Origin: an uncultured Gammaproteobacteria bacterium
GTDB lineage: Bacteria > Patescibacteriota > Patescibacteriia > JACQRZ01
Length of the DNA stretch: 64,000 bases
Assembly (NCBI GenBank): GCA_964621085.1
Contig: CAZUKY010000001.1
Coordinates: 100,937-164,936 of the forward strand
Reading direction: 5' to 3'
A model generated the notes under the pieces. The model made no database searches. It was given only the letters and a program-made list of their open reading frames with translations, and was not told the origin of the DNA. The translations under genes were made by a program, and so were the position numbers. Below are positions 1 through 41,118 of the stretch, one piece after another (position 1 is the first letter of the stretch; the number at the start of each line of letters is the position of its first letter).

Positions 1-160
1 GCTGCACCCAGCCCCCCGCTCGCTAAAAAACTCGCTTCAGGAGAAAAGCACATAGTAAAAAACTTTCATGATATTAGTAGTATATATGATAAAGGCTGGC
101 CGCGCGATGTGCACAGCCAGCCAGAACTCGTATTAAGGAATGTTGGAGGAATTGAAGGAA

Positions 161-523
161 CTATAGGAGAATATCGAGCCCCACGATCAGCTTCGGCTCC
201 GATTGCGTTTTCTCCGGATCCCAAAGCGGCGTCCAACTCCAGAGCCTTGCCGTCGGACTCGTAGGGATGAGGTTCAGGCCATCGCTGACCGGAACCTTGA
301 GCAGAGTGACTTGTGGCCCAATTCCGGAGAATCGGCGGTACTCCACGCCGATACTCAACCATTCCACCGCCTTCCAGGACGCAAGCGATCTGCCCCACCA
401 CCCCGATCCTCCATACTCCAGATCGGCATTCTTCGCGATATCTATCACAAGATAACGATTGCCCCGGTAGTGCTCGTACACCCGATTGCGCTGTACGGAG
501 GTTTCAAGTTTTGTATGTTGCAT
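161..523 (-). CDS. hypothetical protein, possibly DUF1653-like
   Basis: ORF 161..547; segment RVYEHYRGNRYLVIDIAKNAD resembles the DUF1653 core; the track start is a TTG, internal ATG at 523; weak. Confidence 0.3.
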   Translation of the reverse strand: MQHTKLETSVQRNRVYEHYRGNRYLVIDIAKNADLEYGGSGWWGRSLASWKAVEWLSIGVEYRRFSGIGPQVTLLKVPVSDGLNLIPTSPTARLWSWTPLWDPEKTQSEPKLIVGLDILL

Positions 524-586
524 ATAACTCAATAGTATCAGGGACAACTATACTGGTCTAGGGGGATTATTTTTTATATCCTATCG

Positions 587-1090
587 CTATTTCGACTCTC
601 CATGAAGCTCATCCCTGATCTCCATCCAAATCTTTCCTACCTCATTCCGGCCGCGCCCGTCTGTGCCATCGTCCCAGAATCCGTCTGCCTTCGGTCCGGT
701 GGTGATATGTTTGACGATGATACTGTCTCGTGACTCAAGCAATGCGCGGCGCACGTCCTCATGCTGCTCAAATTTTGTGCGACACAGTGCCTTCATCACC
801 TCGCGCTTGCGATCGGAAAAGTTTTGCAGCTGCCTCTGCTTATATGTCTGAGATATTTCCCATGCGCGATAAGGACTTCGCGCATTTTGAATCTCAGCGA
901 CTATATCCTGATCAACATATCGCTGGCAGTGATATGCATGTTCGACAGTCGGATACACCGATCCCTTATATTCGATCGCATGCGCCGAATAGGCGGAAAA
1001 GTATATCGCAAAAATTTCTACAGGGAGCGTACTCATATCAGATGTCGCCATTATGCCGTGTACCTTATGACTAGTCATATGCATAGTCAT
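587..1090 (-). CDS. NADAR-family protein (YbiA-like N-glycosidase, DUF1768)
   Basis: 167 aa; motifs YPTVEHAYHCQRY...SPYRAWEISQ...DGFWDDGTDGRGRNEVGKIWMEIRDEL match the NADAR/YbiA fold signature. Confidence 0.6.
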   Translation of the reverse strand: MTMHMTSHKVHGIMATSDMSTLPVEIFAIYFSAYSAHAIEYKGSVYPTVEHAYHCQRYVDQDIVAEIQNARSPYRAWEISQTYKQRQLQNFSDRKREVMKALCRTKFEQHEDVRRALLESRDSIIVKHITTGPKADGFWDDGTDGRGRNEVGKIWMEIRDELHGESK

Positions 1091-1165
1091 TCTATCGTTC
1101 GTATCATTTCGCGCAAGCCAATACTGAACAACGAATAGGAAATCATTTAAATATGTTCCTGGAAT

Positions 1166-1208
1166 TTTAAAAACACAAAACCCACCAAACGGTGGGTTCT
1201 ATGTTCTG
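1166..1208 (-). terminator. GC hairpin (cccacc-aaac-ggtggg) with T-rich tail on minus strand; near-copy of the hairpin found directly 3' of tRNA-Gln(CTG) at 41 kb
   Basis: about 45 nt, roughly 85% identical to 41004..41047 including the flanking gttctgc; no tRNA adjacent here. Confidence 0.4.
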
Positions 1209-1365
1209 CCTTTCCGATGGTTCAGCGACCTTCGAAATGCTGCTGCCGAACATAGTCCATCAATCGAAGAAGCTGAACCTCGACGAATTTAGTCGGCAAG
1301 CGACCCCTTGACCGCTTGCTAATTTTTTGCAAAGGTCATGTCGGACTACGGATGAGCTAGGGAAA

Positions 1366-1409
1366 TTTGCTAGTGACGCCGCTAGTGACGACTGGGAATC
1401 ACTAGCAAA
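1366..1409. repeat. inverted repeat ttgctagtga/tcactagcaa enclosing tandem 12-mers gctagtgacgcc-gctagtgacgac
   Basis: read directly from sequence; non-coding context. Confidence 0.55.
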
Positions 1410-1526
1410 AGATCTATTTCCCTTTATTCTACGATCCTTTCACCTGCCAAAAAACCGTGATTACTACGTTCACCAGAACAACACCTGAGCGCCAGTAGTA
1501 GTACTTTCGATATATTCAGCCATACC

Positions 1527-1650
1527 ATTCCCATACCTCCCAAGAACGGTTTTTTGGTCACCAAACCACCATCCTCATCCAACCCAAACCAAACACCACA
1601 TCCCAAAACCCCCAAACCCAGGAAACACCCCATCCATCCAGACCAACCCT
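1527..1650. repeat. C/A-rich low-complexity tract (ccaaacc/acccc units) followed by a G/A-rich tract to about 1700
   Basis: composition strikingly unlike the rest of the window; no credible ORF. Confidence 0.5.
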
Positions 1651-1798
1651 AGAGGAGTCCGGCAGACGGGAGAGGAGGACGGAGGTGAAAGGGGTTTTGA
1701 TGAACTGTTATTTAGAATCCATTCTTACCCCTCCCTGCCCGTGCGCGAATGGATAGCTAAGGTATTTTTACTCCCTGGATTGAAAAAACCGGGCAATC

Positions 1799-2122
1799 GT
1801 GACTAAATACATTTGGCAATGGTTGAGAAATGGAGGTGTTTCAATGACCGTAGCCTGGAATCCCAAACTCGCAGCCCGACTGACTGGATTCCTCGCCGCC
1901 ATCGCGTTCATGTTCGTCGCCCCAATCGTCATGCTCTATTCCTTCAACGTTTTGGGCGTGACGGGTGCCGCCCTTTTGGGTGGTGCCATGGGTAAGTATG
2001 CCGAAGAGGCAAACGAGCATGATCCAGGCTTCGAGGTCTTCAACTGGATATGCTGCCTGTCGGCAACGGCCGGCACGGGCTTCGCTCTGGCTAGCCCACA
2101 TCTACGGCAGCTTCCCACCTAG
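1799..2122 (+). CDS. hypothetical small membrane protein (2 predicted TM helices)
   Basis: 107-aa ORF, hydrophobic segments LTGFLAAIAFMFVAPIVMLY and GVTGAALLGGAMG; inside the anomalous insert. Confidence 0.3.
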   Translation: MTKYIWQWLRNGGVSMTVAWNPKLAARLTGFLAAIAFMFVAPIVMLYSFNVLGVTGAALLGGAMGKYAEEANEHDPGFEVFNWICCLSATAGTGFALASPHLRQLPT

Positions 2123-2226
2123 TCAGCCGTCATGGGCGGAAAACCCACTTCTCGGACTTGCAGTGATCCCTCTCTACATGGCGTTTTACAGGCTGGCACG
2201 ATACTTCAATTCGCAGGAGGTCTGAA

Positions 2227-2553
2227 ATGAAGCTGAAGTTCTTAGCGGGAGCGCTTGGGCTCCTCTGCTACTCTGTAGTGATCCTCTTCTGTGGGGTTGG
2301 CATCGGGATGATCGACGGAATCGTCCGGATGGAAGGTCGCCCCATGGATCTCACCAGTATGCCATCGATTACCAACTTCAAGGAGCGAGACTTCATCGTT
2401 AATCGTGCCGATTGCGCTCGCGGCGAGGCGTTGATCTCGCGGAAGACAAAGCCAAACGAGTGGATTTACGTCAAGCTACCGAAAGACTTGGCGTGCGTCC
2501 CTCAGGCGCGGCTCGTGACCGTTCGTTCGAATACCGATATCCGTATGCAATGA
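2227..2553 (+). CDS. hypothetical small secreted/membrane-anchored protein
   Basis: 108-aa ORF with N-terminal hydrophobic signal-like segment; 104 nt after the previous ORF. Confidence 0.3.
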   Translation: MKLKFLAGALGLLCYSVVILFCGVGIGMIDGIVRMEGRPMDLTSMPSITNFKERDFIVNRADCARGEALISRKTKPNEWIYVKLPKDLACVPQARLVTVRSNTDIRMQ

Positions 2554-2657
2554 GTTACGAGATCCACGCAACTGCTCTTTGGCCGCCCAAACTTTCAAAG
2601 CCGGGCGGCCACTTTATTTTCAAAAATCTGGCCTGGACTCGAACCAAAAAAATCTCG

Positions 2658-2987
2658 CTAGCTTTTATACACTGAGCGCTTATTCGCTCTTCCTGCTAAA
2701 ATCCAGATTTTCATCTCAACAACCACAGAAAGAAAAACGCCGGGAACGGAACTATCAATTCTCAATTTGGTATTCTGTGAATGATACCAAATGCAATTAT
2801 ATTTTTCGTCAATCTCAATTTGAGTATTTTTCTTTACATACACATCATTTCCCATGCCGCCATAGAAACTCACAAAAAGATCGGCATTTTGAGTAATTCG
2901 CTCAGACACGACATTGAAGACTTGTTCATCTAATTCGATATTGGTTTCATGGGTAATCAAAGTATTTTCATTCTTTAGTGTATACAT
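2658..2987 (-). CDS. AT-rich hypothetical ORF, possible gene remnant
   Basis: the frame stays open upstream to a stop at 3096..3098 with no alternative start codon, so this may be a truncated or decayed gene; AT-rich unlike its neighbours. Confidence 0.25.
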   Translation of the reverse strand: MYTLKNENTLITHETNIELDEQVFNVVSERITQNADLFVSFYGGMGNDVYVKKNTQIEIDEKYNCIWYHSQNTKLRIDSSVPGVFLSVVVEMKIWILAGRANKRSVYKS

Positions 2988-3232
2988 AAGAATTCCGCCC
3001 TCAAAACGCGGAAAGGCATCGAGAAGAATATTTTCGCCAAAGGAGCCGTTGAAAAAATAGTATATGCCCCCGACGTTATTAAAATTTCCTTTTTGTTAAA
3101 AGATAATTCAGCGCTTGCGCTCGACGGAAAAAATTATGCCCCCGATCGTGCGATTGGTAAAAATGGGGATTTGTCCGAATACGAAAATCCGCCCCTTTTG
3201 AGAGAGACGGAAGTTCGTTCTTGTTTCCAATC

Positions 3233-3303
3233 CTGCGGGACTAGGATTCGAACCTAGATAGGGAGCTTCAAAGGCTCCTGTCCTGCCATTAGACGATCCC
3301 GCA
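3233..3303 (-). tRNA. tRNA-Gln (anticodon TTG)
   Basis: manual fold: acceptor TGCGGGA/TCCCGCA, U8, D-arm with GG, anticodon stem GGAGC/GCTCC, loop CTTTGAA, T-arm CTAGG-TTCGAAT-CCTAG, discriminator G. Confidence 0.85.
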
Positions 3304-3355
3304 TTAAAAAAAGAATGGCTCATACACCACTCTTCTTTTGTTGGTGCGGTAGCTA

Positions 3356-4276
3356 TTATACCCTCAAATACCGCCCCATGGCAAGGGTTGTCGAGAGCAT
3401 AGAAAGCACGACTGCAGCCATGAGTTGGTACCCGAAAATTCTAATGAAATTATCATTGAAGTAGCCGAGCACATCAAGCCCTTGTCCGGCAAAAAAAGTG
3501 CTGGCAAACGGTTGAATGAAGCTGAGAATCGGGAAGAAGATCAAAATAGTCAGTCCGATGGCGCAGACACTGTAGAGCACTCCCTCGATCAAGAGTGGCC
3601 AGCGGATAAACGAGTTTGTTGCGCCCACAAGTTTCATAATCCCAATCTCCCGCCGGCGCGAGTAAATGGTTACCCGGATTGTATTGAAAATGATGAGCAC
3701 GGCAATGATTGCGAAAACCCCGTTGACGGCCAGTCCGGCTGCCTGCACATTTTCTTTCAAGCGATTGATCTTTGCGATAAGAATATCGCGATCCTTTACG
3801 TCTTTTTTTTCGATGATATTCGCATATTGCGATGCATCAATGAGGCGGTTGAGTGCCGGATAGTCTTCTATCGAGCGGGCGCGGAGCGTGAGCGAGGCGG
3901 CAAGCGGATTCGACTCAAGCTCTGCCAAGGACTCCTTAATCAGCGGGTTGCCCTCTCGATCATAGCGCTCTTTCAGCCGCTCGAGTGCGGCGTCGCGTGT
4001 AATGTATTCTGATTCCGTAACAAGTCCGGATTTGGATAGATCGTCCTTAAGCGCGAGAATGTCTTTTTCCGCTGCGTTTTGCTTGAAATAAATCGTGATA
4101 TTGACTCGCTCTTCGATTGCCGCAAGGGAGGTGTCTAAGAAAAGATTGCCGAGCAGAAAAACATTCACAGACAAAAAAGCAAGCATGATGATAAAAATAG
4201 TCACCATGGAAAGCCAGAAGTTGCGCCAAAAGTTCTGGAACGCGAAGTGAAAAACGCGAAAAAACGAGTGAAGCAT
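3356..4276 (-). CDS. ftsX: cell division permease FtsX
   Basis: 306 aa, 4 TM topology with a large periplasmic loop; directly downstream of ftsE. Confidence 0.85.
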   Translation of the reverse strand: MLHSFFRVFHFAFQNFWRNFWLSMVTIFIIMLAFLSVNVFLLGNLFLDTSLAAIEERVNITIYFKQNAAEKDILALKDDLSKSGLVTESEYITRDAALERLKERYDREGNPLIKESLAELESNPLAASLTLRARSIEDYPALNRLIDASQYANIIEKKDVKDRDILIAKINRLKENVQAAGLAVNGVFAIIAVLIIFNTIRVTIYSRRREIGIMKLVGATNSFIRWPLLIEGVLYSVCAIGLTILIFFPILSFIQPFASTFFAGQGLDVLGYFNDNFIRIFGYQLMAAVVLSMLSTTLAMGRYLRV

Positions 4277-4291
4277 GGGTCGAAAAATAAG

Positions 4292-4972
4292 CTAGATGAA
4301 ATATTTTCCGTGATGCCGATCAGCGGTTACGGTGCCGTCCTTGAGCGTGACGACGCGGCGCTTCATCATGTTCACAACCTCCCGGTTGTGCGTAACGCAT
4401 AGGATCGTCGTGCCGAGACTATTGATCTTCTCCAAGATATCGACGATACTCTTTGTCGTTATCGAATCCAGGTCACCCGTCGGCTCGTCTGCGATCAGAA
4501 TCTTCGGGCGATGAACCAGGGCGCGGGCGATCGCTGCGCGCTGCTGCTCGCCGCCGGAAAGCTGGCGCGGATAGCGGTCGGCCATCTCTTCCAGGCCGAC
4601 AATCGAGAGCACTTGCGGGACGACTTCCCTCACCTTGCGCCCCGACTCTCCGCACACCTCAAGCGCAAATGCCACGTTTTCGCCAACCGTTTTTTTGTCG
4701 AGCAGTTTGAAGTCCTGATACACGACACCGATCTGACGGCGCAGCTGAGGTATCTCGCGTCGGCGAATGCGCGCGATGTCCCAATCGCCAATGAGGACCT
4801 TGCCATCCGACGGCCGTTCCTCGGCGGTCAAGAGGCGGACGATCGTGCTTTTGCCTGCACCGCTCTGGCCAACAAGAAAAACGAACTCGCCGGCGGGAAT
4901 GTGCAGACTGACGTCTTTCAACGCCTCGATCGACGGATGGTACTGCTTTGAAACATTCTCAAGCGTGATCAT
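4292..4972 (-). CDS. ftsE: cell division ATP-binding protein FtsE (ABC ATPase)
   Basis: Walker A GQSGAGKST, ABC signature LSGGEQQR, Walker B ILIADEPT. Confidence 0.9.
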   Translation of the reverse strand: MITLENVSKQYHPSIEALKDVSLHIPAGEFVFLVGQSGAGKSTIVRLLTAEERPSDGKVLIGDWDIARIRRREIPQLRRQIGVVYQDFKLLDKKTVGENVAFALEVCGESGRKVREVVPQVLSIVGLEEMADRYPRQLSGGEQQRAAIARALVHRPKILIADEPTGDLDSITTKSIVDILEKINSLGTTILCVTHNREVVNMMKRRVVTLKDGTVTADRHHGKYFI

Positions 4973-10091: not shown

Positions 10092-12461
10092 ATGGGTAGG
10101 CATCCGCAGGTATTCATCGACAAGCTTTCGCTCCCGGGAAAATTGAACAACGAGCTATCATACGTGTTCACGAATGATCCGATAGATCACAAAAATGGCT
10201 CAATTACCCTTTTTGGCTTGTTTCTCTGCACCTCTGCGCGCGATCTGTATCATTCTGCCATTAAGGCAACGGTAAAACATTATCTCGATTTTTTTCATCG
10301 GACCGACTTCTCTGTTGCGGAGAGCTTTGAAAACTCGCTGCACGACAGCGGAGAATTCATTTTTGAAAACGCGATCCAGTATACGGGGGAAAAAGTTTCG
10401 CAATCCATTGCGGCCGCTCGGGAAAGCGCGGGGAGCGACGAGACGTTCGAGATCAAGAACATGCACTGCATCCTCGGCGCACTCATCAATGATACGCTCT
10501 TTTTGAGCGTGAGCGGCAGAGCGCTCTGGGCGTACTACATGCATCCTGTCCATCGGGATAACAATTTTTCCCACTATACGCTCGTGCCTATCGTTTCCGG
10601 TTCAGACGCACCCGATGGGTCCCAGCGCCTCTTTGCCAATATTGTCAGCGGCAAGGTCGGGATCAAGGGCGGAACGATTTTTTTGTGCAACGACGCCTTT
10701 CTTGAATACATTGATGATGATCAACTCAAGCAGTCCCTGACAACTCGCCCCATTGAAACCCTGCTCGACTCTTTCCACACCTCGCTCTCCAAAGTCTCGT
10801 CAAAGAAGGATTTTAGCGCGATCGTTATCCAGCCGAACTACACTCCCTCTCCGCATGCGAGCAAGAGCGGTGCGGCACGGCATCAGACGGCATCGAATCG
10901 CTCGATGCAAAGCTTGATATCGACCGAGCGCGGGACCGATAGCGTCATGTCTCCCCAAATTGCGCGCTCCATCGCATCGATCCTCCGTTCGTTTCTTTTT
11001 TCACTCATTCTGCCGGCAATCCGATTGTGCATTCAAACATTGCGCAACGTCCCCTGGAAATCGTATACGGATGGTCTCGCTCGCGTCCTTCGCACTGCTC
11101 CCGGACACGTGCGCACGCTCGCTTCGCGCATCCGTGCCCTGAAACGCGACAACAGCGCTTCGCCTTCGCCGCTTTCGTTTTCAAACGCACAGTCAGCACT
11201 TGCAGGCATGGTGCAGCGATTGGAGCCCCTGCCCCTCGTCCAACGCTTGGCAGGATATGCCTCCCGCATCCCACGCGCATTCGTTGAGCAGGTTCGGCAG
11301 ATTATCGTTGCCCATCGCGAGAAAGGACTACTCGCGTTTCGCGAACTTCCCATGGCATCAAAGGGGTTCCTTGTTCTCGCGATCATCTTCTTGCTTCTCT
11401 TCGTGCAAAGCGTTTTTGTGACCGCCAGCAACAAGGCGTCGGCAAAACGCAACGCCGAGTATGCGCAGAAGTTGAGCGCAATTGACGAGCGCATCGATGC
11501 GGCTGAAGCGAGTATCCTCTACAACGACGAAGCCCGCGCGAGCGGTCTACTTGCTGAAACAGAGGCCCTTCTTGCGGACTTCCCGCCGTCAATGCCCGAT
11601 GCGGATTCCCTCCGCTCATCGCGAGAGCAACGCATCGAGAGCATTCGCATGCGCATTAGCAAAGTAATCTCCATCGTAAACCCCAGCAAACTTGGAGATC
11701 TGTCCGGACAACTACCGAATGCTCGCGAAACAACGATTGCCGTCCTGCCGGGAATGATAGCGCTCGTTTCGCCTGACGGCATATACGAATTTGCCAACGG
11801 CAGCGCAGTGCGCATCGATACCCAGGCAAAAATCCCATCTGCGAGTTGCGCGACACCGCTCTCTGACGAACTTCTTATCTGCAGCAAGGAAGGAGATCGC
11901 CTCTATGCGCTCGCGGCAAAAGAAAAGACCGTCCGGCCGGTTTCTTTTGATCGCGGTGAGGGGCAAGGCGTCCCCGCAGCGATCGGGACATATAATGGTA
12001 ACGCATATGTCCTTGATGCATCATCCGGCAAAGTCTTCCGCCATTCGAAGGCCGGTGACGGTTTCCAGAAAGGATCCTCGTGGGTACGCGACGGCGAGCG
12101 CCTCCTCGCGCCTGCCGCCTCGCTCGCAATTGATGGGAATATTTACGTGGCATCGGCAAACGGGTCTATCATCCGCTATGCCGCCGGCCGAGCGGAGCCT
12201 CTTGCGATCCCTGCACTCGAACCGCCGCTTGCATCGATCAAAAAAATAGTGACACTTCCCGAAACAGACCTTCTGTTCGTTTTGGATGGCCAGAGCGGAC
12301 GAGTTATCATTCTTGAGAAAAAAACGCTTCAGCTTCGCGGCCAACTCATGTCCGAGACGTTTGGCGCGCTTGCTGATATCGCGCTGACCCCTGACGGCAA
12401 GGACATCCTTATTCTGAGCGAGAACGGCGCCCTGTACCGCGTGCCGGCAGATATCAAGTAG
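10092..12461 (+). CDS. large hypothetical membrane protein (789 aa; N-terminal cytoplasmic domain, central TM, C-terminal beta-propeller-like region)
   Basis: long ORF in a high-coding frame; TM segment FLVLAIIFLLLFVQSVFV near residue 430; C-terminal repeated GxxYV(L/A)D and DG motifs. Confidence 0.5.
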   Translation: MGRHPQVFIDKLSLPGKLNNELSYVFTNDPIDHKNGSITLFGLFLCTSARDLYHSAIKATVKHYLDFFHRTDFSVAESFENSLHDSGEFIFENAIQYTGEKVSQSIAAARESAGSDETFEIKNMHCILGALINDTLFLSVSGRALWAYYMHPVHRDNNFSHYTLVPIVSGSDAPDGSQRLFANIVSGKVGIKGGTIFLCNDAFLEYIDDDQLKQSLTTRPIETLLDSFHTSLSKVSSKKDFSAIVIQPNYTPSPHASKSGAARHQTASNRSMQSLISTERGTDSVMSPQIARSIASILRSFLFSLILPAIRLCIQTLRNVPWKSYTDGLARVLRTAPGHVRTLASRIRALKRDNSASPSPLSFSNAQSALAGMVQRLEPLPLVQRLAGYASRIPRAFVEQVRQIIVAHREKGLLAFRELPMASKGFLVLAIIFLLLFVQSVFVTASNKASAKRNAEYAQKLSAIDERIDAAEASILYNDEARASGLLAETEALLADFPPSMPDADSLRSSREQRIESIRMRISKVISIVNPSKLGDLSGQLPNARETTIAVLPGMIALVSPDGIYEFANGSAVRIDTQAKIPSASCATPLSDELLICSKEGDRLYALAAKEKTVRPVSFDRGEGQGVPAAIGTYNGNAYVLDASSGKVFRHSKAGDGFQKGSSWVRDGERLLAPAASLAIDGNIYVASANGSIIRYAAGRAEPLAIPALEPPLASIKKIVTLPETDLLFVLDGQSGRVIILEKKTLQLRGQLMSETFGALADIALTPDGKDILILSENGALYRVPADIK

Positions 12462-12968: not shown

Positions 12969-13508
12969 CTATTTTTTTGCTTCTGCAATTGCGTTTAGGG
13001 CGTAGACGAGGCCGCGCAAGTTTCCCTGCAGTACGCCAACCATGCCGCGCATGGGCTGTGCAAGCGATCCGACCGCTTTTGCGAGAAGCTCATCGCGGGA
13101 TGGCAAGCTGGCAAGCGATTTCACCGAACGCGCATCGAGCGCGCGCGAACCTGCCGGTGCGGAAAGGATAAGTCCGGAGAGAATGCCAAGCGCCTCATGG
13201 CTTTTTCCAAAATTTGCCAAGAGCCGCGCAGGCGCAACCTCATCCCCATAGCCGAATACTGCCGCCACCTCACCCTCTAGGGAACGGGGGTCGATTTCAT
13301 CCAGACCGCGCTCCTTCAAAGCAATCGAAAATAGCGTTTTCTTTGCCATGATGCACTCACTGTTTTCCGCGGCGCATATCTTGCGCAATTCCTCGGTTTC
13401 CTTGACCTTCAACCCCTGGAAATTCGCAAAGATAACGGATTTGCTCCTGTCCAACCGCTCTGCCAAACTTGCAGTAACTGCCTTTTTGCTCTCTTTTGAT
13501 CGAGCCAT
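12969..13508 (-). CDS. rplJ: 50S ribosomal protein L10
   Basis: start at MARSKESKK (13508); L10 family similarity; immediately upstream of rplL. Confidence 0.9.
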   Translation of the reverse strand: MARSKESKKAVTASLAERLDRSKSVIFANFQGLKVKETEELRKICAAENSECIMAKKTLFSIALKERGLDEIDPRSLEGEVAAVFGYGDEVAPARLLANFGKSHEALGILSGLILSAPAGSRALDARSVKSLASLPSRDELLAKAVGSLAQPMRGMVGVLQGNLRGLVYALNAIAEAKK

Positions 13509-13703: not shown

Positions 13704-14378
13704 CTACTGGCGAATACAGAAAAGGAAAATGGAGAGCGCGTGGCCGACATTCAGGGACTCAAGGCTCTTGCTATGCGGGAGGAAGAGAGAAGTGCCAGGG
13801 ACAGCGAGCTGAATGCCCGATCCCTCAGACCCGGCGATACATACGCAGGGCTTCTCTACTTGAGCAGCTTGAAAAGCTCTTGCCCCCTTCCGCTTTTCAA
13901 GACGGTAGACGGGCCGGCCGTATCCACGGATGGCATCGGTCGCACGCACTCGCGAGAGCGATTGCCAGGGAACTGAAAAAATGGAACCGGCAGACGATCG
14001 CACAACCTTCGGACTCGTCGGATCCGCCGCATCAACAAGGACAAGACTCGCGTCAAAACCAAGACAAGCCCGCTGTATCGCGCCCACATTGCCGGGGTCC
14101 TGCACGCCGTCCAAAACGACGATGATATCGCGTGCAGTGATATCCGAATCGCTCCATACCGGGATGCGCGCAACAGCAGCTCGGGGCTGCGGCGTCTCGG
14201 TCGTTACTAACCGGTGAAAATTCGGGGTATCTTTGGAGCCAAAGGTGAATACCACCGCACTGCCGGCGGCCTCGATCGCCTTTTCTCCCTCTACCAAACA
14301 AAGGCCGCTTACATCGCGGCCTTTTTTCGTATGAAGCGATCGGATCAGTTTTTCTTGCGCCCGAGTGAGCATAATCAA
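13704..14378 (-). CDS. TrmH/SpoU-family RNA 2'-O-methyltransferase (RlmB-like)
   Basis: SPOUT motifs VLDGVQDPGNVGAIQRAC and CIAGSEGSGI. Confidence 0.8.
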   Translation of the reverse strand: MIMLTRAQEKLIRSLHTKKGRDVSGLCLVEGEKAIEAAGSAVVFTFGSKDTPNFHRLVTTETPQPRAAVARIPVWSDSDITARDIIVVLDGVQDPGNVGAIQRACLGFDASLVLVDAADPTSPKVVRSSAGSIFSVPWQSLSRVRATDAIRGYGRPVYRLEKRKGARAFQAAQVEKPCVCIAGSEGSGIQLAVPGTSLFLPHSKSLESLNVGHALSIFLFCIRQ

Positions 14379-36119: not shown

Positions 36120-36881
36120 CTACTCCCCGCCATGAGCCACGGAGACGAGCGCTCCGATCGATACGAGTCCAAGGAGGAATGCGATCAGAATTCGATATGT
36201 TTGGCTGTGTTTTGCGCGATCCTGCAGCTCAGGAATGAGATTCGAGGCTGCGATATAGACAAAAATACCCGCCGTTCCCGCCAAGAGAAACGGCAACGTG
36301 TTTTCAAACATGCGAGCTCCGAAATATCCGATAATTGCTCCGATGACGGCAAGCAGCGATTGCCCCACATTCACGGCCAATACCTTCATCTTGGACCATC
36401 CCCGATCCAGGAGAATGATGAAATCACCGATTTCCTGGGGAACCTCGTGCGCAGCAACCGCAAAAGCGGTCACGAGCCCCAAGGAAGGGTCTGCGACAAA
36501 CGCCAACGCTATCGCAACGCCGTCGAGGAAGTTATGGATGCTGTCGCCCAGGATGACAAGGCTTGGCAGAGAGGCGGTATGCTCGCTATGCGAATCTTCT
36601 GTCCGATGCAGGGAATGGAAATGGCGCATGATCAGCCGTTCCAATACAAAAAAGAGGAAAAAACCCACGAGAAAAGCGATGAAAATGTCGTGCGGCTCGT
36701 CGACCGCCTCTACGGCTTCCGGAAGCAAGTCCAAGAAACTGACGCCCAAAAAAGCGCCGGCCGCAAACGCGATCAGCGGAATAACAATCTTCATCGCAAG
36801 CTGATAGCGCCACAGCACAAGAATGCCTCCAATAAGCGCGAAAAATCCGGAAATAAGACTATAGAGAATAATCTGACCCAT
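36120..36881 (-). CDS. ZIP-family zinc transporter (ZupT-like)
   Basis: 8 TM helices, HEVPQEIGDF motif. Confidence 0.85.
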   Translation of the reverse strand: MGQIILYSLISGFFALIGGILVLWRYQLAMKIVIPLIAFAAGAFLGVSFLDLLPEAVEAVDEPHDIFIAFLVGFFLFFVLERLIMRHFHSLHRTEDSHSEHTASLPSLVILGDSIHNFLDGVAIALAFVADPSLGLVTAFAVAAHEVPQEIGDFIILLDRGWSKMKVLAVNVGQSLLAVIGAIIGYFGARMFENTLPFLLAGTAGIFVYIAASNLIPELQDRAKHSQTYRILIAFLLGLVSIGALVSVAHGGE

Positions 36882-37095
36882 ATGCGTATTTTATTTATAT
36901 AACCATAGATACTAATCAATTATACTGAAGAGTACAGTAAATGCAAACTTATTGCAATAGTATTTTGTGAAAAAAACAATTCTGCGCTTACCAGCAGCGT
37001 AACCGCCGTCAGCGGGATCGCGTATAAGACTGAAACGACTGCCTTTAAATTTCAAAGAATCAAATATATAACTTATACGCATAAGTGAATTACCT

Positions 37096-41003: not shown

Positions 41004-41047
41004 TTTTTTTAAACACAAAACCCAACCTTCCGGTTGGGTTTCGCGTT
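41004..41047 (-). terminator. terminator hairpin cccaacc-ttcc-ggttggg with T-rich tail directly 3' of tRNA-Gln(CTG)
   Basis: near-copy at 1166..1208. Confidence 0.55.
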
Positions 41048-41118
41048 CTGCGGGACTAGGATTCGAACCTAGATAGCGTGATTCAGAGTCACGAGTCCTG
41101 CCATTAGACGATCCCGCA
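41048..41118 (-). tRNA. tRNA-Gln (anticodon CTG)
   Basis: identical to tRNA-Gln(TTG) outside the anticodon arm (stem CGTGA/TCACG, loop CTCTGAA). Confidence 0.85.

Follow-up and report, generated by a model that had tools for sequence, protein, structure and literature searches.

We report on the DNA that adjoins the 3' side of a tRNA-Gln(TTG) gene in an uncultured bacterium deposited under Gammaproteobacteria and placed in Patescibacteriota by GTDB (assembly GCA_964621085.1, contig CAZUKY010000001.1, positions 100,937 to 164,936), and on the remains of a large serine recombinase (LSR) gene and of an imported gene that were found there. The window, i.e. the whole stretch analysed, comprises 64,000 nucleotides, and on its minus strand the gene order is ftsE (4292-4972), ftsX (3356-4276) and then tRNA-Gln(TTG) (3233-3303). 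An earlier note on the same DNA had proposed that the interval between this tRNA gene and a hairpin at approximately 1166-1208 is a decayed site-specific insertion of approximately 2 kb. The features on which the analysis mainly rests are the following (positions are those of the window):

3233-3303, minus strand: intact tRNA-Gln(TTG) gene (ARAGORN; Rfam, 61 bits)
3178-3211, minus strand: hairpin (3188-3211) with T-run, predicted terminator of tRNA-Gln(TTG) (terminator scan, folding)
2979-3257, plus strand: relic of the 3' end of an LSR gene, homology at 2994-3143 (BLASTP, tblastn)
2658-3003, minus strand: 5'-truncated Patescibacteria accessory gene, homology at 2709-3003, with a 109-aa open reading frame (ORF) at 2658-2987 (homologue search, nucleotide comparison)
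2624-2709, minus strand: tRNA-like unit of 86 nt with a tRNA-Gln-like segment at 2632-2658 (motif search, ARAGORN, tRNA matching)

Related loci (given as L-numbers) were fetched from species genomes and metagenomes, and the FtsX anchor search covered 185k species genomes and the JGI metagenomes. The FtsX-tRNA-Gln(TTG) order is common to 73 of 160 related loci; the nearest relatives have FtsX proteins that are 50-55% identical to that of the window, none being closer than 55%, and each of the window proteins tested is a singleton at 90% identity. Synteny with the window beyond tRNA-Gln(TTG) was not found in the relatives fetched by FtsX, and when the interval was compared with phage DNA the tRNA alone gave matches.

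Comparing the interval with the fetched loci (tblastx) gave a match to a locus in a Magasanikbacteria metagenome-assembled genome (L047), where the gene for a 470-aa LSR with Resolvase, Recombinase and zinc ribbon domains immediately follows tRNA-Gln(TTG) on the other strand and has its 3' end inside the tRNA gene. The peptide encoded by window positions 2994-3143 (plus strand) is 42% identical over 50 aa to residues 390-439 of this protein (BLASTP, E 2e-10), and a tblastn search of the entire window with the L047 LSR returned the relic with an E value of 1.2e-6. The open frame at 2979-3257 reaches into the T-arm of tRNA-Gln(TTG) and ends there, and in an alignment with seven LSRs the relic falls in register with their conserved C-terminal block. 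The Resolvase, Recombinase and Zn_ribbon_recom domains gave no hit on the frame 2979-3257, and no further LSR similarity was detected in positions 1-3400; lacking any catalytic part, the window copy is predicted to be a non-functional relic. That no integrase remains in the interval, as had been stated earlier, is contradicted by this C-terminal fragment.

The arrangement recurs among the relatives. Intact LSR genes (Resolvase, Recombinase and zinc ribbon) that are antisense to and overlap tRNA-Gln(TTG) are present in L047, L002 and L059, LSR genes truncated by the contig ends run into the tRNA gene from the antisense strand in L081 and L025, and in L082 a C-terminal LSR stub with upstream stop codons enters the tRNA gene in the same antisense orientation. 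An LSR gene or stub was thus found at tRNA-Gln(TTG) in 6 of the 59 loci in which the sequence continues for 300 nt or more beyond the tRNA on its downstream side, and both LSR-free and LSR-bearing tRNA-Gln loci exist at family level among the relatives. Because the pairwise identity of these LSRs is only 25-59%, the association between tRNA-Gln(TTG) and LSR genes appears to be old. Moreover, in a viral contig of 63% GC (L175; IMG/VR, IMGVR_UViG_3300021167_000734) the last codons of an LSR gene are antisense to a 55-nt tRNA-Gln 3' fragment, the top 30 matches of which are all tRNA-Gln; in the segment 7040-7110 this fragment, the anticodon loop of which is of the CTG type, precedes a hairpin and a T-run. 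No complete tRNA was detected in L175, and the segment 7040-7110 suggests a candidate attP. Queries of IMG/VR with the L047 and L002 LSRs returned no relatives.

A direct copy of the tRNA-Gln(TTG) 3' end (18-20 of 20 positions) is located downstream, within 4 kb, and with none upstream, in 9 of 82 related loci (L153, L004, L042, L067, L072, L096, L120, L121 and L160), at distances of 25-1400 nt. The clearest example is a perfect 38-nt copy 60 nt away in L153 (10389-10426 and 10487-10524); an apparent LSR hit in L153 was rejected, as it proved to be the duplicated tRNA fragment, with no LSR. We interpret these duplicates as footprints of past integrations and tRNA-Gln(TTG) as a recurrent integration site across the relatives, with the LSRs encoded beside it being the likely integrases. 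The L047 LSR gene is also bracketed by a perfect 151-nt inverted repeat (2512-2662 and 3939-4094), one copy of which begins with the final 7 nt of tRNA-Gln and takes in the last approximately 50 codons of the LSR, and the same pattern, at least 55 nt long and running up to the contig end, is present in L002, which is from a different study (11811-11866 and 13314-13373). These repeats could represent an invertible cassette, an IS-like unit or an assembly artefact; an LSR-flanking repeat of this type is absent from the window.

Next to the LSR stub, positions 2709-3003 (minus strand) correspond to the C-terminal two-thirds of a conserved Patescibacteria protein of approximately 150 aa, representing a family without a Pfam entry, for which 37 homologues with up to 76% aa identity were retrieved. 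The window copy is without the first approximately 50 residues, including YCExSPxGAMGN of the invariant YCExSPxGAMGNEGG, such that just EGG is left where the homology starts, and its frame has no start codon before 2987. The AT-rich, start-less ORF at 2658-3095 is a chimera, the apparent N-terminal extension of which (3003-3095) is the antisense of the LSR stub; the stub and the truncated gene meet head-to-head within 10 nt (approximately 2994-3003). At the DNA level the truncated gene is 81% identical to L161-163 and 77% identical to L164-166, and its GC content is 35%, as in the donor-type contigs (33-40%), compared to 53% for the host. Since the GC content is still low and the dN/dS ratio (0.19) is comparable to that of intact pairs, the gene appears to be a recent import that was truncated recently. 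The homologues (L161-L174) are 60-79% identical across distant Patescibacteria lineages and in defence islands follow a PDDEXK_1 or Macro-domain gene at a distance of 3-12 nt, with restriction-modification, Thoeris (TIR), SMODS-SLATT, GmrSD and PDDEXK genes in the vicinity. The predicted fold of the family is weakly LytTR-like. For the start-less ORF, an arsenate-reductase-like match that fell well short of the cut-off (E 0.009) was dropped once the true family had been identified.

The left edge of the AT-rich DNA is marked by the tRNA-like unit at 2624-2709, which has a closing stem of 7-10 bp and a perfect T-loop motif at 2635-2645 (GGTTCGANTCC on the tRNA strand), the only one in 64 kb outside the four tRNA genes. 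The unit is tRNA-like and not a tRNA gene. Its segment 2632-2658, in direct orientation, gave its best matches to the variable-loop and T-arm region of other Patescibacteria tRNA-Gln genes (26 of the top 30 among 321 tRNAs), with a score that was equalled by 5 of 1354 background windows (empirical p ≈ 0.004), and the T-arm is CTTGG/CCAGG where the host has CTAGG/CCTAG. Furthermore, a 23-mer (2639-2661) overlapping this segment recurs with 22 of 23 positions in L164 and L165, where it lies 1.6 kb downstream of the respective truncated-gene homologue, and the similarity ends within the T-loop; according to our own calculation approximately 4e-6 such matches are expected in the 2 Mb of loci. The segment 2632-2658 is likely an att scar of the imported element. 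Elsewhere in the window, a second call by ARAGORN at a relaxed threshold (13983-14074, minus strand, 'tRNA-Lys', 92 nt) is probably a false positive.

How far the foreign DNA extends depends on the hairpins and on the DNA to the left of the scar, for which the following features were identified:

41005-41118, minus strand: tRNA-Gln(CTG) (41048-41118) with abutting terminator hairpin, used as comparison copy (ARAGORN, Rfam, alignment, folding)
2580-2611, plus strand: hairpin followed by ACTTTATTTTC, predicted terminator of a small-ORF operon (fold, dG -19.3 kcal/mol, z -3.5)
2227-2553, plus strand: 108-aa ORF with N-terminal hydrophobic segment and AGGAGG Shine-Dalgarno (one homologue)
1844-2122, plus strand: 92-aa hydrophobic ORF, 107 aa if read from GTG at 1799 (ORF list; GGAGG Shine-Dalgarno)
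1210-1798, no strand assigned: non-coding or decayed stretch (composition, folding, frame scan)
1165-1209, minus strand: intrinsic-terminator hairpin with stem at 1170-1207, upstream of the NADAR gene (alignment, folding)
587-1090, minus strand: NADAR-domain gene flanking the interval (Pfam, E 2e-21; PHROG and NCBIfam hits)

The two tRNA-Gln paralogues (TTG and CTG) are identical except for the anticodon arm, and a terminator scan together with folding predicted intrinsic terminators, each with a G+C-rich hairpin and a T-run, at 1170-1207, 3188-3211 and 41012-41047 on the minus strand and at 2580-2611 on the plus strand. The hairpin at 3188-3211 (dG -19.7 kcal/mol, z -3.2) is positioned 21 nt past the 3' end of tRNA-Gln(TTG) and is predicted to be the terminator that now serves this gene. 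The same layout of tRNA, spacer, hairpin and T-run is present in two LSR-free loci (L001 and L003) and two LSR-bearing loci (L002 and L082), which diverge only past the T-run, and this sharing suggests that the hairpin is host DNA rather than element DNA; an equivalent hairpin and T-run is located inside the LSR 3' end of the viral contig L175, i.e. it is element-borne there.

That tRNA-Gln(CTG), near 41 kb, is followed directly by a hairpin terminator had been noted before and was confirmed. The copy of it reported at approximately 1166-1208 is also present, with a lower identity than the 85% or so given earlier: 36 of 47 columns (77%) match between 1165-1209 and 41005-41051, with two 1-nt gaps that compensate each other in the stem (a 1-bp indel). 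Both hairpins have stems of 16-17 bp (dG -28.5 and -25.1 kcal/mol, z approximately -6.5) and are followed on the minus strand by a TTTTGTGTTT tail, a 16-mer match is found only at these two sites (0.12 expected), and the alignment terminates at CTGC, GCAG being the last 4 nt of tRNA-Gln. Hairpins of the form AAACCC-stem-loop-GGGTT(T), where the A- and T-tracts lengthen the stem, occur five times in the window (1178, 12489, 41018, 43052 and 53269) compared to 0.05 expected, and we interpret them as a genome-wide bidirectional terminator style, to which part of the likeness between 1165-1209 and the tRNA-Gln(CTG) terminator would be due. Because only these two terminators, and not the other three, share the GTG-interrupted T-tract and GCAG, they are probably homologous. 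The earlier note had taken the 1165-1209 hairpin as the displaced terminator of tRNA-Gln(TTG); the homology with the tRNA-Gln(CTG) terminator is thus probable, while displacement is not established, as a terminator is in place at 3188-3211, even though L175 illustrates that such a hairpin may come with an element. A tRNA pseudogene beside the 1165-1209 hairpin was considered and rejected, the alignment score being equalled by 1.4% (own tRNAs) or 7% (85 tRNA-Gln) of background windows, and ARAGORN called no tRNA near this hairpin even at an 85% threshold. The weak tRNA resemblance noted near 1210 is accordingly not significant, the only significant tRNA-like scar being that at 2632-2658.

The interval as a whole deviates from the window (GC 48.0% versus 53.2%, a value in the lowest 2.6% for windows of its size; the 3-mer distance ranks among the highest 0.8%), which is due to the segment approximately 2610-3190 and a C/A-rich tract. 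The former has the lowest GC content in the 64 kb (32-43%), begins and ends with abrupt GC steps at approximately 2610 and 3190, and lies exactly between the hairpins at 2611 and 3188. The small-ORF operon (1799-2558; GC 54.9%) is normal with respect to both GC and 3-mer content. Hence, the view that the interval is unlike the rest of the window applies to the interval taken together and not to the operon. Its other reported components, i.e. the CA-rich tract, an inverted/tandem repeat, two small ORFs (from 1799 or 1844 to 2122 and 2227-2553) and the start-less AT-rich ORF (2658-3095), are all present. A second low-GC patch (approximately 42%) lies near 36.7 kb (approximately 36600-36900).

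Specifically, the stretch 1210-1798 is non-coding with a 3-mer distance in the top 1.9%, and contains the C/A-rich tract (approximately 1556-1650; GC skew -0.77) as well as a 44-bp site (1366-1409) with perfect 11-nt inverted arms (TTTGCTAGTGA and TCACTAGCAAA) and an internal GCTAGTGACG tandem. This site folds with -27.8 kcal/mol (z -4.5) and is found nowhere else in the window, and its size and symmetry would suggest a recombinase or repressor site; no tandem array was detected in the interval by TRF. Frame +1 has only 2 stops in approximately 200 codons between 1192 and 1805, i.e. from the hairpin to the small-ORF operon, and may represent a decayed gene; its conceptual product gave no hit in Pfam.

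For the 92-aa ORF no homologue other than the self-match was retrieved. It stops at 2122, and a +1 frame with a hydrophobic helix, containing AGGAGG, runs on to 2225 and ends 1 nt before the ATG of the 108-aa ORF; positions 1844-2225 may thus be a frameshifted 127-aa gene once translationally coupled to the 108-aa ORF. For the latter, a search of 1.84 billion representatives returned a single homologue (63% identity, E 2e-32), and the ORF is predicted to be a real but rare gene. The two small ORFs were also searched for as toxin, bacteriocin, phage or defence proteins and gave no hits in Pfam, PHROGs, NCBIfam, PADLOC or viral contigs; inside the interval no intact defence gene was found and the PADLOC library gave no hit. 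On the left, the NADAR gene has a GC content of 43-44% compared to 53%, matches the phage family PHROG 1017 and has a weak NCBIfam match to 'NADAR family anti-phage protein'; given its low GC content the foreign region may extend to the left of the 1165-1209 hairpin.

Taken together, the LSR stub, the imported gene fragment, the tRNA-Gln-like fragment and the LSR genes and tRNA duplicates in the relatives bear out a decayed site-specific insertion on the 3' side of tRNA-Gln(TTG), and we consider it probable that an integrative element relying on an LSR left its inert remains at this locus. As read from the sequence, the demonstrable relic covers approximately 0.6 kb (approximately 2620-3185) and not the 2 kb proposed before. 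The element would have carried its LSR gene antisense to the tRNA, with the 3' end entering the tRNA gene in the arrangement seen in the relatives; its attP would have been within the 3' end of the LSR gene, as suggested by the L175 fragment, such that integration regenerated the tRNA. In the window, the last approximately 90 codons of the LSR frame would be left, fused head-to-head at approximately 2994-3003 to the 5'-truncated cargo gene of a low-GC donor. Since the two relics abut within 10 nt, one internal deletion is the simplest explanation, and it would probably have removed approximately 390 LSR codons, the divergent promoter region and approximately 50 cargo codons. The foreign-type tRNA-Gln-like scar at 2632-2658 would then be the other edge of the AT-rich block of approximately 0.6 kb. 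Apart from the lack of a catalytic domain in the element, which is observed, the present state can be pictured as follows: nothing at the locus would be mobile, transcription of the tRNA probably starts from a promoter-like site at 3355-3384 and ends at 3188-3211, that of the small-ORF operon (1844-2553) would end at 2580-2611, and the 1170-1207 hairpin would insulate the NADAR gene. The DNA at 1210-2620 may stem from an older element integrated in tandem or may be native variable DNA.

Several observations weigh against this interpretation. The relic scores weakly against a profile of seven LSR C-termini (E 0.039) and its LSR similarity depends mainly on one relative, L047. The tRNA-like unit is called by ARAGORN only at a 90% threshold, at which approximately 0.9 spurious calls are to be expected in 64 kb, and has no Rfam tRNA hit at E values up to 10; the scar is no clean displaced copy of the 3' end of the resident tRNA, its T-arm being of a foreign type and the acceptor strand missing, and tRNA-Gln(TTG) is entirely host-type and gives no crossover point. 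Neither an empty site nor an intact element with both ends was obtained, the nearest FtsX being 55% identical. In addition, the truncated-gene family is found elsewhere without an LSR, and in one locus a tyrosine integrase gene (Phage_integrase) is located 2 kb away, so the two relics could stem from different events. The AT-rich block might in that case derive from a defence-type island, with restriction-modification, Thoeris, SMODS and GmrSD genes as around the homologues, that was moved by a non-LSR agent such as a tyrosine integrase acting at the tRNA T-loop, with the LSR stub as an unrelated visitor that came earlier or later. The T-loop is a classic crossover region of tyrosine integrases, and the 23-mer shared with L164 ends there; Pfam and ORF scans of the window, however, revealed no tyrosine-integrase relic, LSR genes recur at tRNA-Gln(TTG), and the abutment of the relics within 10 nt is explained most simply by a single deletion in one element, such that we regard this origin as unlikely. 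That there never was a mobile element, and that native intergenic DNA, pseudogenes and chance similarities account for the data, could be argued from the lack of a close relative for presence/absence comparison. We find this highly improbable, because a fragment of 35% GC is 81% identical at the nucleotide level to distant low-GC genomes while FtsX is at most 55% identical (aa) to anything, because the LSR similarity is collinear with the tRNA, and because of the 22/23 match of the 23-mer.

With an LSR element as the preferred source of the AT-rich block, the extent of the insertion can be read in two ways. The whole of 1210-3232 may have been inserted, as a single element or as two piled up in tandem, with the original tRNA terminator now at 1165-1209 and the hairpins at 3188-3211 and 2580-2611 supplied by the element(s), and to this we give something short of an even chance. 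It would account for the GCAG, the unusual tail and the compensatory stem indel that 1165-1209 shares with the tRNA-Gln(CTG) terminator and for the succession of three tRNA(-like) end and hairpin units in the same orientation (3303-3188, 2709-2580 and 1209-1170); L175 illustrates that an LSR element may bring its own tRNA 3' fragment and hairpin, and tandem att scars are known in the relatives. It fits less well with the normal GC and 3-mer content of 1799-2558, where the operon is apparently intact and one gene has a conserved homologue, with the absence of an integrase relic or a significant tRNA fragment near 1210, and with the LSR-free loci L001 and L003, the spacer and hairpin of which are those of L002 and L082 and suggest that the tRNA-proximal hairpin is host DNA. 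If that hairpin is element-borne, the displaced-terminator picture becomes plausible, probably as a tandem pile-up; if it is host DNA, only approximately 0.6 kb is demonstrably foreign. It is conceivable, with the same chance, that only approximately 2620-3185 is foreign, that 1210-2620 is native and lineage-specific, and that the 1165-1209 hairpin is the terminator of the NADAR gene and belongs to a shared terminator family. The abundance of AAACCC...GGGTT(T) terminators (five versus 0.05 expected), the sharp GC steps at approximately 2610 and 3190 with the tRNA-like scar at the left edge, and the normal operon composition agree with this, whereas the GCAG and GTG-interrupted T-tract that the other three terminators do not have, the compositionally odd, non-coding and decayed-looking 1210-1798 stretch and the low GC of the NADAR gene on the left speak against it.

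With respect to known systems, the signature of tRNA-integrated islands as defined by Islander comprises tDNA, island, a displaced tDNA fragment and an integrase gene beside the att site (PMC4383910). The window shares with such islands an intact tRNA at one end, an adjoining integrase relic, a putative tRNA-derived fragment in direct orientation at the other edge and a foreign composition, and the relatives provide presence/absence and duplicated tRNA 3' ends. Islander-type islands are described as using tyrosine integrases, whereas the window relic and its intact relatives are LSRs; moreover, the window fragment is no clean copy of the resident tRNA 3' end and the island is down to approximately 0.6 kb. 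Serine integrases have been stated as not known to target tRNA genes (PMC4383910), and just 14 of 297 serine integrase (S-Int) elements were assigned in silico to t(m)RNA genes, with 'experimental proof required' (PMC7192596). Compared to the large serine integrases of the phiC31, Bxb1, A118 and TnpX type, the proteins of the relatives have the same Resolvase, Recombinase and Zn-ribbon domains, and the window stub aligns with the C-terminal block of these relatives. Integrases of this type mostly target protein-coding genes and their attP and attB share a short core only, whereas here the LSR gene overlaps the tRNA gene, L175 has a 55-nt tRNA fragment, and the window copy is without catalytic parts. 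The small serine recombinase integrases of the phiRSM type (Ralstonia filamentous phages) target a tRNA gene and also use a serine-family recombinase for integration; they are resolvase-like and without the Recombinase and Zn-ribbon domains, unlike the LSRs discussed here. Finally, the locus resembles defence islands and tRNA-adjacent hot spots in that the homologues of the truncated gene reside among defence genes and a NADAR gene flanks the interval, and differs from them in that the window interval itself is without an intact defence gene.

The window locus holds what is left of a decayed integrative element; remnants of this general kind are known, and its integrase belongs to the unusual serine class. 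A more far-reaching proposal, to which we would give an even chance, is that a clade of LSRs is widespread and tRNA-Gln-specific, with attP in the 3' end of the integrase gene, where a tRNA-Gln 3' fragment and a replacement terminator are carried, such that the tRNA is restored upon integration in the manner of tyrosine-integrase islands; the clade would extend from Patescibacteria as far as a viral contig with 63% GC, and the window would hold one wreck or two stacked ones.

In itself the window relic is ordinary genome debris, and its importance lies in the comparison with the relatives. What the locus adds is the presence of LSRs at the same tRNA-Gln(TTG) in several Patescibacteria together with a viral tRNA fragment within an integrase gene, which provides a concrete and testable set of integrase, attP and attB candidates. 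As a side result, an uncharacterised protein family of approximately 150 aa was found to be moving between Patescibacteria lineages in defence islands. For these bacteria, the genomes of which are very small and host-dependent, tRNA-Gln(TTG) is likely a hot spot of gene flow.

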